A DNA stretch of 25,044 nt from an uncultured Caldisericota bacterium. GTDB lineage: Bacteria > Caldisericota > Caldisericia > UBA6126. How positions within the stretch are numbered: position 1 is the first letter of the stretch; the number at the start of each line of letters is the position of its first letter. The notes under the pieces were generated by a model that was not told the origin of the DNA, did not search any database, and was given only the letters and a program-made list of their open reading frames with translations. Location: positions 1-25,044 of the forward strand of contig CAZMFK010000002.1 of the NCBI GenBank assembly GCA_964565545.1. Direction: 5' to 3'. Shown here one piece after another: positions 2,731-7,755 of the stretch. The position numbers and the translations under genes were made by a program.

Positions 2731-3498
2731 TTAGGACTCCTTAAGAGTTTTTTTGATGCTTTTCAATTCTTTTCGAATTTCACTAAGATTTTTAGACATT
2801 TCATACAAAAGATGGATCATAAGATTGCGAACATCATCGTCTGCGAGATCTGAATACCGGGATTGCATATCCGCAGTGAAGCTTTTACGTGTTCGATCCG
2901 GAAAAAAACAAGCGTACAAATCTTTTTCATATTCTTCCAGTTCATCTTCGTCCATATCATAATCTATCGTCATTGAGGGCTTAAGGCCATTGATTTGGGA
3001 AATCAAAGCTACTCGATGCTGCGCTTCTAACTCTTCTTGGGTTCGGCGTTTCCCTTCAGGCACATGTAAAAAGATGGTTGGAAAACAAAAATACTCAACA
3101 CCATTGATAAAAACCATTAAAGGGTACTCTTCCAATATATCCAACAAAACATAAGGAGAAATCATGTATATCTCCCCGCTTTGAATGACAAATACCACCG
3201 TACCTTTTACTGGACGCTCCTTTTTCAAGGATTCAAGTTTTTCTGCAAAATTCTCAAATACAGTTTTTTCAAGCAGCACATGTCTCTTCCAGTGAATATT
3301 TTTGGATGTTTCTGGCAAAAGCAAATCAAGATCTTCCTGGACCTGGTCAAGATACTGAAGTAGGCAAAAGATCCTGTCTGATTGCAATATAGCGGTATTG
3401 GCAGCGATATTGCTTGATCGAAGATGATGTTCGTGAAGTTCGTTTTTAAGAAGCCCTTTGACGACTCGTTTGGCTTCCACAAGATTTTTCGGATTCAA
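2731..3498 (-). CDS. Hypothetical protein, 255 aa, acidic patch and predicted C-terminal coiled coil
   Basis: Long ORF with TTG start preceded by GGGAGGA SD; 5 nt from the pth start; no family recognised. Confidence 0.75.
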   Translation of the reverse strand: MNPKNLVEAKRVVKGLLKNELHEHHLRSSNIAANTAILQSDRIFCLLQYLDQVQEDLDLLLPETSKNIHWKRHVLLEKTVFENFAEKLESLKKERPVKGTVVFVIQSGEIYMISPYVLLDILEEYPLMVFINGVEYFCFPTIFLHVPEGKRRTQEELEAQHRVALISQINGLKPSMTIDYDMDEDELEEYEKDLYACFFPDRTRKSFTADMQSRYSDLADDDVRNLMIHLLYEMSKNLSEIRKELKSIKKTLKES

Positions 3499-4664: not shown

Positions 4665-4816
4665 TTTACACCTTTGCTCAATTAAGAGAAAACTAATTTT
4701 GATTATTGTAACATAGTATTAGCACAAAGATATATGCGCCTATCAATCCGTTTTTGACACACTATTGAGATAAATAATGAATTGAACAATCCATGCTCGA
4801 AAGCCATTTCAACCTG

Positions 4817-4825
4817 TGATATACT
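4817..4825 (+). promoter_or_regulatory. Putative extended -10 promoter (TGnTATACT) for the GT4-TagA-CsaB operon
   Basis: TG at 4817-4818, TATACT at 4820-4825, weak -35 TCGAAA at 4797-4802 (17-bp spacer); ATG 4834 follows 8 nt later with no SD. Confidence 0.5.
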
Positions 4826-4833
4826 AAGCTGGT

Positions 4834-7755
4834 ATGAATGAACAACCCTTGAGAAGAATTGGCTTTGTGGCAGATGGTGGGGATGCTGGTGGCGCACGAA
4901 CTCACATTTTAGCCTTACTGGCTCGCATGCCTGAACATAATATTGAATGCTATTTTTTTTCACTGGGTGAAGGAGCTCTTTCCAGCTCAGTAAAAAAGCT
5001 TGAAAAAATTCATTTTACCCCTTACCCTTTAAAATCCAAAGCTGACCCTCGTATTTTCAAAGCTATTCAACACTGGGCAAAGGAGCATAGGCTAGATATT
5101 GTTCATACCCATGGCTTGAAAGCTAATATGTATGCACGTTTAGCTCTTTATCGTTCTCCAATGCCAATAGTGACAACTTACCATAGTCATCCTTTTTTCG
5201 ATTATCGAAACCTTTTGTTTGGCATTGCTTTTACCATAATAGACCAACTAAGCCTCCATCGCAGCAATCGTTTTATTGCTGTGTCCTATGAAATTTCGAC
5301 CCAGCTGGAGCATCGTGGGATTAGTAGAGATAAAATTACCATAATTAAAAATGGCGTAGATATTAGTCGTTCGCAGTTCATTGCGGAAAAAAACCTAAGT
5401 GAACAGATTCGCTCACAATGGGATATTCCTTCTGATGCATTTTTAATTGGATCACTGGGAAGGTTGGTCAAAGTTAAAGGGTATCGTGAAATGTTGCATC
5501 TTTTTAAAGAATGTCTCCTGAAAACTGATAAAGAATTGTATTTATTGATCATCGGGGGAGGAGAAGAAGAGCCATCCTTAAAAAAACTAGCTGAAACACT
5601 GAACATTCAAAAAAGAGTGCGGTGGGCTGGATATCAAAAGGATCCCTGGCCTTTAGTTCAAGCATGCGACCTGATGCTGTTTACTCCAAAGTCTGAAGCG
5701 TTGGGTATTGCTATTTTGGAGTGCATGGCTTCTAAAAAAGCTATAGTATCTAAAAAAGTAGGTGGCATACAAGAGCTTCTGCTTGATCGTTATAATGGTA
5801 GAATCCGCTCCAAACGAAACGAATTGGTTAAAATCGTTTTGGAATTAAGTTGCGATTTAGATCAGCGAAAAGCTTTAGCTGAAAATGGTTTTCAAATGGC
5901 TCTTCGCTTTTTTACCCGAGAACAGATGGTAAAAAAAACTGTTCAGCTTTATCGAAGCATTAAAAAAGATAGAGTTTGTTTTCAGGATTTGCCAGTAGAT
6001 AACTACCATAAAGTTGATTTACTGCCAGTTTTATCAAAATGGCTCAACAGTTCTACTTGCCACCAGATAGTAACTATCAACCTGGAGATGATAGCCAGAT
6101 CACAAAAAGATTCTCTTTTTAAAAAAGCCATCAAAGAAGCTGAGCTCGTTATTCCTGATGGCGTAAGCATAATAAAATTAGCTCGATGGATAGACGAGTT
6201 TATAAGTGAAAAAGTTGCTGGAATCGAATTGGGAGAAGATCTACTAAAATTAGCTGAAGCTAACCATAAGGGAGTTTTTTTTCTTGGATCCTCTTCCGAA
6301 AACCTTCAAACGCTAAGAACAAAACTGATTGAACGTTTCCCAAGTCTCAATATAGCTGGAATGCATCATGGCTTCTTTTCTGATTCGGAAGAAAAAGATA
6401 TTGTTGCTTTGATTAATCAAAGTAATGCAGATTTGTTATTTGTAGGAATGGGAGCAGGAAAACAAGACTGCTTCATCCATCGCAACAAAAAAGAGCTTAA
6501 AGCTAAAATTGCAATGGGAATTGGAGGAAGCCTGGATATATGGTCAGGTCGAATGCATCGTGCTCCAGCTTGGGCTATTAAATACAATTTAGAATGGCTT
6601 TATAGAATCATTAGACAGCCCAAGTTGCGTTTATACCGTTTTATTAGCACAGTCCCCGTTTTGTTCTTTTTACGAAAAAGAATCAGAGCTGAAATCTTTC
6701 GGATTTTAATCTCAGGTTATTACGGATACGGAAATATTGGTGATGAAACTATTCTTCAGACACTAGTAAGAGATCTGAAATCATTTTCCAATACTTGTAA
6801 TATGCAATTAACCGTCCTTTCCTCAAATCCTCATATGACTACTTCGTTGGCAGAAGTCAACTCAAGCCGAAGATTTAATCTAATTTCCCTGGTTAGAGAA
6901 ATTATGCGAACAAACGGACTCATCAGTGGCGGAGGGGGTTTGATTCAAGATATTACCAGCATAAAAAGCCCCTGGTATTATTTAGGCATTATTGCTTTGG
7001 CACACATATTAAACAAAAGGGTTTTGGTTTATGCTAACGGCATTGGACCTCTCCATCACCCATTAAATCGTTTTTTAGCCCGGAGCATTCTCTCAAAAGT
7101 TCAACAAATAACTGTCAGAGATGAGCATTCTGAAAATCTTCTTCAATCCTGGGGAATCAAGCACTGTCAATTGACCGTTGATCCCATATTTTCTTATCAA
7201 CCCATACCAATCCAGGATCCATATCAACAATACAATGATTATATTGCTGTTTCCCTTGGACCTTCCAAAGAAACTGCCATAAAAAACAAGCATATTGCGC
7301 ATCACCTTGATTTGTTAAGCCAAAAAACAGGCAAATATTGTCTTTTTACTCCTTTTTATGGCACATATGACAGTCGTTTTTCAGCAAAAATCATAAAGCA
7401 GATGAATGAGAAATCATATTTGATCGATACTTTTTTGCTTCCTGAAGAAATGTTTTCGCTGTTGAAGCGTTCAGCTTTTGGGGTGGGAATGAGGTTGCAT
7501 TTTCTGGTTTTTCTTTCTCTGCTCAACAAACCTATACTACCAATTATGTATGACCCTAAAGTAGAAGCATTTTGTCAACAGCTTGCCCTGCCTTTTGCCT
7601 GGAGGAAAAATATTTCTCAGCAGGAAATGACCCAACAAATGGAATTTTTCATACCCTATTCCCGTCAGGCTGTTTCATATCAAAGTTCCTTGAAAGATCT
7701 ATCATTTCGCAACATAATTAACAAAGAAAATCTTCGGGAATTTATATGTTTTTAA
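4834..7755 (+). CDS. Triple fusion: GT4 glycosyltransferase + WecB/TagA/CpsF (GT26) glycosyltransferase + CsaB-type polysaccharide pyruvyltransferase
   Basis: aa ~1-378 GT4 (DIVHTHG, AVS, EALGIAILE = EX7E); aa ~379-620 TagA-like (VTINLEM, PDGVSI, GMHHGFF, GIGGSLDIWSG..HRAP, NLEWLYR); aa ~621-973 CsaB-like (SGYYGYGNIGDE, GGGGLIQDITS.KS.WYY, VRD..S, GMRLH, YDPKV). One uninterrupted 973-codon ORF. Confidence 0.92.
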   Translation: MNEQPLRRIGFVADGGDAGGARTHILALLARMPEHNIECYFFSLGEGALSSSVKKLEKIHFTPYPLKSKADPRIFKAIQHWAKEHRLDIVHTHGLKANMYARLALYRSPMPIVTTYHSHPFFDYRNLLFGIAFTIIDQLSLHRSNRFIAVSYEISTQLEHRGISRDKITIIKNGVDISRSQFIAEKNLSEQIRSQWDIPSDAFLIGSLGRLVKVKGYREMLHLFKECLLKTDKELYLLIIGGGEEEPSLKKLAETLNIQKRVRWAGYQKDPWPLVQACDLMLFTPKSEALGIAILECMASKKAIVSKKVGGIQELLLDRYNGRIRSKRNELVKIVLELSCDLDQRKALAENGFQMALRFFTREQMVKKTVQLYRSIKKDRVCFQDLPVDNYHKVDLLPVLSKWLNSSTCHQIVTINLEMIARSQKDSLFKKAIKEAELVIPDGVSIIKLARWIDEFISEKVAGIELGEDLLKLAEANHKGVFFLGSSSENLQTLRTKLIERFPSLNIAGMHHGFFSDSEEKDIVALINQSNADLLFVGMGAGKQDCFIHRNKKELKAKIAMGIGGSLDIWSGRMHRAPAWAIKYNLEWLYRIIRQPKLRLYRFISTVPVLFFLRKRIRAEIFRILISGYYGYGNIGDETILQTLVRDLKSFSNTCNMQLTVLSSNPHMTTSLAEVNSSRRFNLISLVREIMRTNGLISGGGGLIQDITSIKSPWYYLGIIALAHILNKRVLVYANGIGPLHHPLNRFLARSILSKVQQITVRDEHSENLLQSWGIKHCQLTVDPIFSYQPIPIQDPYQQYNDYIAVSLGPSKETAIKNKHIAHHLDLLSQKTGKYCLFTPFYGTYDSRFSAKIIKQMNEKSYLIDTFLLPEEMFSLLKRSAFGVGMRLHFLVFLSLLNKPILPIMYDPKVEAFCQQLALPFAWRKNISQQEMTQQMEFFIPYSRQAVSYQSSLKDLSFRNIINKENLREFICF

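Follow-up and report, generated by a model that had tools for sequence, protein, structure and literature searches.

A putative single-chain GT4-TagA-CsaB enzyme for a pyruvylated wall polymer in an uncultured Caldisericia bacterium

The stretch of DNA analyzed here (hereafter the window: 25,044 nt, contig CAZMFK010000002.1 of assembly GCA_964565545.1) belongs to a metagenome-assembled genome (MAG) of an uncultured member of Caldisericia (1.79 Mb in 335 contigs, 88.7% complete) and contains a gene for a 973-aa protein in which a family 4 glycosyltransferase (GT4), a TagA-like glycosyltransferase and a CsaB-like pyruvyltransferase are joined in one chain (Table 1). Sequence comparisons and the analogy with characterized enzymes make it likely that this protein is a trifunctional peripheral-membrane enzyme that builds the pyruvylated lipid-linked unit of a wall polymer anchoring proteins with S-layer homology (SLH) domains, with all three domains probably active. 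The chemistry of TagA followed by CsaB, along with SLH anchoring, has been established in Paenibacillus alvei and B. anthracis (PMC6030368, PMC6801904, PMC13721041), and in P. alvei the two enzymes act, in this order, on lipid-diphosphate-linked N-acetylglucosamine (lipid-PP-GlcNAc) (PMC6030368, PMC6801904). The fusion is a lineage-specific variant of this known partnership, and two-domain fusions are common.

Table 1. Features of the fusion gene and its immediate surroundings, in window coordinates
Feature	Residues	Position (nt)	Strand	Evidence
Promoter-like site TCGAAA-17-TATACT with TG (extended -10)		4797..4825, ends 8 nt 5' of the ATG	+	consensus match only
Putative GT4-TagA-CsaB trifunctional protein, whole open reading frame	1-973	4834..7755, stop codon 7753-7755	+	open reading frame listing, Pfam, AlphaFold2 model
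GT4 (GT-B, retaining-type) glycosyltransferase domain	1-378	4834..5967	+	Pfam, fold match, invariance
TagA/TarA-like GT26 domain	379-619	5968..6690	+	phmmer, Foldseek, invariance
TagA C-terminal tail	587-618	6592..6687	+	7MPK alignment, AlphaFold2 model
CsaB-type polysaccharide ketal-pyruvyltransferase domain	620-973	6691..7752	+	TIGR03609, motifs, model
ComF-family (phosphoribosyltransferase-like) gene, 214 aa		7746..8390, overlaps the fusion end by 10 nt	+	TIGR00201

The fusion protein and its domains

The fusion is encoded by a single open reading frame (ORF) that begins with ATG and contains no internal stops, and a Pfam search of the product identifies three complete domains, namely, GT4, WecG/TagA/CpsF and PS_pyruv_trans. 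The ORF is genuine and not an assembly artefact, given that full-length orthologues (45-67% identical) from independent assemblies make up about 22 clusters at 90% identity, that, of 14 other genomes belonging to the order of the window, 12 carry the gene intact in one frame, and that both domain junctions are bridged, with zero indels, by Logan contigs from sludge-metagenome runs, some of which possibly represent the source sample. All the runs that contain the fusion gene are sludge metagenomes; the sole one labelled 'RNA-Seq' is probably DNA and offers contigs only. Hidden Markov models (HMMs) derived from the orthologue alignment place the domain boundaries at residues 378/379 (nt 5967/5968) and 619/620 (nt 6690/6691). 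Across 20 full-length orthologues, both junctions are nearly gap-free and constant in length, with a 1-residue gap at the TagA-CsaB junction in one subclade only, and the AlphaFold2 model of the full-length 973-aa protein has a mean pLDDT of 85.8 and a pTM of 0.80. The original prediction, made from the letters of the sequence, had read the gene as complete GT4, TagA and CsaB domains in one frame, uninterrupted by a stop or frameshift, with junctions near 5965 and 6690. The ORF listing and Pfam bear this out, our own HMMs put the junctions at nearly the same positions, the sludge contigs cross them without any indel, and the domain assignments are upheld by Pfam, by the CsaB equivalog score and by the conservation of the TagA catalytic residues, as detailed below.

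Several variants of the locus were encountered. All four sludge runs covering the gene agree on five clustered substitutions relative to the window, all within the CsaB domain at 7266-7294 (C>G at 7266; A>T at 7279, 7286, 7292 and 7294), which reflect either strain variation or a difference in the local assembly. In one relative (G011, C5:20199-23103, minus strand), the fusion is split within the GT4 domain, at about residue 302-307, into pieces of 319 aa and 663 aa, the latter comprising TagA-CsaB (P0275 and P0057); either the gene is a pseudogene with a frameshift or the split reflects an error of sequencing. A promoter-like site precedes the ORF (Table 1), and such sites are no more numerous in the region than expected from shuffled sequence. 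No clear Shine-Dalgarno sequence was found ahead of the ATG (4797-4833), and the fusion mRNA may be leaderless or carry a very short leader.

The TagA domain is the one with the closest structurally characterized relative, T. italicus TagA (5WB4, 5WFG, 7MPK, 7N41; PMC6493773, PMC8784642), with which it shares the GT26 fold, the key residues and the C-terminal tail. A phmmer comparison with 7MPK yields an E-value of 1.8e-42, and the modelled domain superimposes on 7MPK/5WB4 with a Foldseek template modelling score (TM) of 0.95 and a root-mean-square deviation of 1.5 Å. The domain is also recognized by PF03808 (Glyco_tran_WecG; residues 436-597, E = 4.9e-55, 186.3 bits against a cut-off of 27.4) and passes the superfamily model TIGR00696 (148.7 bits, cut-off 69). 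In the alignment with T. italicus TagA, T414, N416, D442 and Q544 are equivalent to T37, N39, D65 and Q167, and in the tail, E587, R591, R599 and R602 are equivalent to E210, R214, R221 and R224. In the T. italicus enzyme, D65, R214, R221 and R224 have been shown experimentally to matter, whereas N39 and Q167 contact the 3'-OH and the N-acetyl group of N-acetylmannosamine (ManNAc) (PMC8784642). Among the 20 orthologues, N416, D442, Q544, R591, R599 and R602 are invariant. The two proteins differ in that their identity is only about 32%, the equivalent of Y137 is F514 in the genus of the window (Tyr in other genera), and the tail continues into CsaB instead of ending in a free C-terminus.

This tail, which in T. 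italicus TagA is a membrane-targeting element (PMC8784642), is predicted by AlphaFold2 to form one long helix (residues 596-618) leading directly into the first CsaB strand (621-628). In the model, the TagA tail thus serves as the connector between the TagA and CsaB domains, an arrangement that probably keeps the active sites close to one another at the membrane surface, and substrate may, as the original prediction proposed, be channelled between them.

The CsaB domain passes the S_layer_CsaB equivalog model TIGR03609 (residues 623-922, 272.9 bits against a cut-off of 213.1), in addition to the broader PF04230 (PS_pyruv_trans; residues 634-908, E = 1.5e-34, 120.7 bits against 25.3). The motifs comprise GN-GD (634-637), GGG-LQD (699-706), R762-D763, D783, D846, R887-L-H889 and YDPK (906-909); GN-GD, GGG-LQD, R762, RLH and YDPK are invariant in a mixed alignment of fusion and stand-alone CsaBs, and these same motif residues, R887 and H889 included, are invariant in the 20 fusion orthologues. 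Modelled alone (pLDDT 91.7), the domain appears to adopt a GT-B-like fold, and a Foldseek search with this model retrieved GT-B enzymes and UDP-GlcNAc 2-epimerases (TM 0.58-0.68), with the pyruvyltransferase Pvg1p (5AX7) not among the 50 matches listed. A sequence search of the PDB with the CsaB domain produced no significant match, and a profile search touched Pvg1p only at E = 1. In the second family of the order (G013), the triple fusion (P0012, 1099 aa; L037:2262-5561, plus strand) carries about 120 additional aa within CsaB, inserted close to the position of residue 800 in the window protein and without a Pfam match.

The GT4 domain matches Glyco_transf_4 (PF13439) and Glycos_transf_1 (PF00534) over residues 19-354. 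Both glutamates of its EX7E motif (E288 and E296) are invariant in the 20 orthologues, as are G19, G20, H117, R210 and K215. The nearest folds in a structure search are those of the retaining enzymes BshA, MshA, HepE and PglA (TM by target at most 0.86), and the best scores of named family models, those for BshA and others, fall far under the cut-offs. A word-index search with this domain alone recovered only fragments of the fusion family and one 417-aa GT4 at 29% identity, a single-protein locus search of genome contigs gave two distant GT4 matches from Verrucomicrobia and no others, and the exhaustive search described below found stand-alone GT4s of about 386 aa with about 32% identity. Among the family models and the word-index matches, no model or close stand-alone relative points to the donor or acceptor of this domain.

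Distribution and origin of the fusion

In an exhaustive HMMER search of 1.84 billion representatives, the best 150 matches were classified with our own domain HMMs. Counted as representatives at 50% identity, these matches were dominated by two-domain proteins: GT4-CsaB (61) and CsaB-TagA (46), followed by GT4-TagA and TagA-TagA (5 each) and CsaB-GT4 (3). The remaining architectures were GT4-CsaB-GT4 (2), the GT4-TagA-CsaB family of the window protein (1) and a Pfam-confirmed GT4-CsaB-TagA protein (P0069; 1). Outside the window family and its N-terminally truncated fragments (e.g., P0023), all recovered fusions of TagA with CsaB have CsaB first. A search of AFDB clusters with the whole model found no three-domain representative, the best match being a GT4-TagA fusion.

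The same modules recur in other combinations. The cultured Caldicellulosiruptor bescii, C. kronotskyensis and C. acetigenus encode a 612-aa CsaB-TagA fusion; such proteins and the GT4-CsaB fusions (about 740 aa) differ from the window protein in domain order and never combine all three modules. The metagenomic GT4-CsaB-TagA protein (P0069/P0217, 987 aa) does have all three in one chain, but with TagA and CsaB in the reverse order and with about 32% identity to the window protein; the strongly supported clade uniting the window family with the Caldisericia TagA copies does not include its TagA, an indication that this fusion arose independently. In the searchable literature, we found no paper describing any GT4/TagA/CsaB fusion; the systematic survey of CsaB sequence space was restricted to proteins of 250-600 aa and therefore excluded such fusions (PMC6801904), and in public databases the triple-fusion proteins are named only 'CsaB' or 'TagA'. 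The suggestion that this architecture had not been described accordingly holds in part: the order GT4-TagA-CsaB appears to be absent from the searchable literature, but the protein is present in databases as 'CsaB' and conserved across the order, and two-domain fusions of the same modules, such as those of Caldicellulosiruptor, are common.

Within the class, the triple fusion is found in both families of the order to which the window belongs (46-48% identity to the window protein within the same family), whereas the other families have separate genes. In the sister genome G033 (complete, a single contig of 1,558,103 bp), the whole set forms one cluster that consists of genes for a UDP-ManNAc-dehydrogenase-like protein, TagA-TagA (479 aa, immediately downstream of the dehydrogenase gene), CsaB (337 aa, with a 4-nt overlap) and a ComF-like protein, followed by glyA, upp, tagO, mnaA and murA; in another genome, G031, the csaB start abuts the TagA-TagA stop. 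The tandem TagA-TagA genes (two GT26 domains) next to csaB in the sister families lie at L035:9157-10596 and L036:6995-8461, both on the minus strand. The sister families therefore resemble the window in the downstream ComF-like gene and in the presence of tagO and mnaA in the pathway but have a second GT26 domain (in a TagA-TagA protein of about 480 aa) where the window protein has GT4, and CsaB as a separate gene. A complex prediction for the second TagA domain and CsaB of G033 gave a score of 0.00 without controls, which speaks neither for nor against binding.

In a maximum-likelihood tree of the TagA domains (midpoint root only, with the key split independent of the root), the domains of the triple fusions group together (support 100/99), with the C-terminal, CsaB-adjacent copy of the Caldisericia TagA-TagA proteins as their sister group (99/96), and the N-terminal copies form a separate clade (100/100). 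Given this placement, the most parsimonious history is one in which the second TagA became fused to CsaB through loss of a stop or overlap and GT4 took the place of the first TagA. Among the sister-lineage copies, the N-terminal one (T1) scores 156 bits with the WecG model, compared to 128 bits for the CsaB-adjacent one (T2). Because the replaced copy is relatively more WecG-like and lies beside a dehydrogenase gene, there is a weak hint that the swapped step concerned a sugar of the N-acetylmannosaminuronic acid (ManNAcA) type.

The predicted pathway, partner genes and alternative explanations

The pathway would begin with Und-PP-GlcNAc made by a TagO/WecA-like enzyme encoded on another contig. 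The TagA domain would then transfer β-ManNAc from UDP-ManNAc supplied by MnaA, as suggested by homology and by the conserved catalytic and specificity residues, and the CsaB domain, judging by the equivalog model and the P. alvei precedent, would set a 4,6-ketal pyruvate from phosphoenolpyruvate (PEP) on the lipid-PP-linked β-ManNAc. The GT4 domain, in place of the ancestral second TagA, would add one more sugar, probably α-linked, at some stage of the sequence. From gene content, Wzx-like flipping, Wzy-like polymerization and LCP attachment to peptidoglycan would follow, and the finished polymer would be the ligand of the SLH-domain exoproteins of this genome; for the host organism, we infer both the order of the reactions and the role as SLH ligand. 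This scheme parallels that of P. alvei TagA and CsaB, which operate with MnaA and TagO (PMC6030368, PMC6801904, PMC8615578), in that ManNAc transfer would come first and 4,6-ketal pyruvylation with PEP second, while the intermediate is still lipid-linked; in P. alvei, these steps yield the SLH ligand, and there, as here, csaB is linked to tagA in the genome. In contrast to the separate enzymes of P. alvei, there is one GT4-TagA-CsaB chain with an extra GT4, and tagO and mnaA lie on another contig. With a Caldisericia MAG as its host, the fusion lies outside the Firmicutes, the group whose separate neighbouring csaB and tagA genes were cited in the original prediction.

The chemistry proposed there, that is, ManNAc transfer, ketal pyruvylation and an extra GT4 step on a lipid-linked intermediate, is favoured by the CsaB equivalog score, the TagA residues and the partner genes. 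The tagO-like gene, mnaA, a Wzx-like flippase candidate and SLH proteins, whose presence would be expected, are all in the MAG, away from the fusion locus. Contig C3 carries, on one strand, genes for a TagO/WecA-like phosphotransferase, MnaA (wecB equivalog), MurA, a DUF4330 protein, MurJ and an LCP ligase, along with a 186-aa ORF, a Wzy_C protein, a UDP-ManNAc-dehydrogenase-like nucleotide-sugar dehydrogenase and a GT4, and the flippase candidate is on contig C73; these genes are inferred members of the pathway of the fusion's polymer. The 186-aa ORF (L015:6040-6600, minus strand), between the LCP and Wzy_C genes, has no Pfam or NCBIfam match. The fusion gene accounts for the sole PF03808 and the sole PF04230 match found in the MAG. 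The same genome encodes at least six secreted proteins with SLH domains, among them an amidase, a 5'-nucleotidase and two solute-binding proteins of family 5 as well as two others, and a TRAE motif occurs in one of these proteins; the proposed SLH link is in keeping with these proteins and the single TagA/CsaB copy. The two family-5 ABC solute-binding proteins with N-terminal SLH domains (L033, G000:C140:970-4515, minus strand; L034, G000:C159:1642-4062, plus strand), one of which contains Cu_amine_oxidN1 repeats, suggest that binding proteins of transporters appear to be tethered to the wall polymer.

A role of the polymer as an outer-membrane tether was considered and rejected: no Omp85/BamA was found in the 88.7%-complete MAG, the SLH proteins are exoenzymes and binding proteins that are not OmpM-like, and published work regards Caldiserica as having lost their outer membrane while retaining SLH and CsaB (preprint 10.1101/2021.05.31.446380).

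Several points weigh against the assignment of the fusion to pyruvyl-ManNAc synthesis for SLH anchoring. The TagA domain scores 164-166 bits with the TarA equivalog model NF041710, under the cut-off of 350, so it is filed as a GT26 member working like TagA and not as a TarA equivalog, with ManNAc as its probable donor and ManNAcA as the alternative. Any correspondence between residues of the CsaB domain and D106, R217 and R337, the proposed catalytic residues of Pvg1p (PMC4872226), is tentative. The neighbours of the fusion gene are housekeeping genes (described below), and hence the locus is not a glycan operon. Furthermore, at 88.7% completeness, a second TagA or CsaB could have remained unassembled.

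It is also conceivable, albeit unlikely, that the TagA domain is WecG-like and transfers ManNAcA, with CsaB pyruvylating another sugar, for example, the one added by GT4, in which case the product would be a teichuronic-type polymer rather than the pyruvyl-ManNAc epitope. The shortfall against the TarA cut-off, the match to the WecG equivalog model (130-134 bits) and the dehydrogenase-like genes, located in the C3 cluster and, in the sister genome, immediately upstream of TagA-TagA, fit this possibility, but the TarA model outscores the WecG model on the same domain, N416 and Q544, the equivalents of the ManNAc-contacting residues, are invariant, and the CsaB domain passes the S_layer_CsaB model. 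Moreover, of the two sister-lineage copies, the one that groups with the fused TagA in the tree has the weaker WecG score, and the separate GT4 beside the dehydrogenase could handle the uronic acid.

We regard as very unlikely the possibility that the product is a unit of a capsule or exopolysaccharide (EPS) that plays no part in SLH anchoring. PF04230 is a broad family, EPS is pyruvylated by many PS_pyruv_trans enzymes, a fused GT4 is typical of EPS loci, and the SLH genes are not adjacent to the fusion gene; nevertheless, the domain passes the CsaB-specific equivalog model beyond the broad Pfam one, no other pyruvyltransferase was found in this genome, which encodes at least six SLH proteins, the LCP ligase gene clusters with tagO and mnaA, and CsaB and SLH domains co-occur across Terrabacteria, as noted for Caldiserica too (preprint 10.1101/2021.05.31.446380). 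Finally, the notion that one or more of the domains are dead scaffolds, or that the ORF results from an assembly or frameshift error, appears extremely improbable: the split gene of G011 and the Tyr-to-Phe change at F514 could be taken in its favour, but all checked catalytic-type residues are invariant in the 20 orthologues, the frame is single in the great majority of the order's other genomes, and independent contigs cross both junctions without indels.

The surroundings of the fusion gene include, upstream and divergent, mfd, pth and a nitronate-monooxygenase-like gene and, downstream, the ComF-like gene and genes for a Cof-type HAD hydrolase, serine dehydratase and BioY, with synteny retained in a congener. 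A 255-aa ORF beside pth (2731-3498, minus strand) has no Pfam match. The ComF-like gene (TIGR00201, 57 bits, under the cut-off) is a conserved partner without an obvious link to the wall glycan: genes of this kind (about 214-224 aa) directly follow and overlap csaB or the fusion at L035:7522-8190 (minus strand), L036:5271-5945 (minus strand) and L037:5554-6195 (plus strand), and the pair is kept in the host genome, in the sister family within the order and in two further families of the class, although the proteins are only 22-23% identical (E = 1e-9 to 1e-11).

Implications for wall-glycan synthesis

Pyruvylated secondary cell-wall polymers are the ligands of SLH-domain proteins and, in diderm Terrabacteria, also of the OmpM-type outer-membrane tether. 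Counting the 61 GT4-CsaB, 46 CsaB-TagA and 5 GT4-TagA clusters and the two independent triple fusions, one might speculate, although we consider it doubtful, that the recurrence of fusions reflects one particular GT4 that acts generally as the third partner of TagA and CsaB in SLH-ligand synthesis across Terrabacteria, that replacement of the second GT26 by GT4 changed the wall glycan in the lineage studied here, and that the protein is a rigid, membrane-docked assembly line with three sites and the TagA tail as a hinge. If this is the case, the protein would be a single-polypeptide tool for the synthesis of the SLH-binding epitope in vitro, which a natural single-chain GT4-TagA-CsaB enzyme could simplify. 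Both the core chemistry and the partnership of TagA with CsaB were known before, so the gain is incremental. Nevertheless, the fusion lends itself to testing substrate channelling at the membrane and points to a GT4 step that is undefined in the model pathway, and the apparent exchange of a GT26 domain for GT4 would show how the repeat unit of a wall glycan can be rewired within one phylum.

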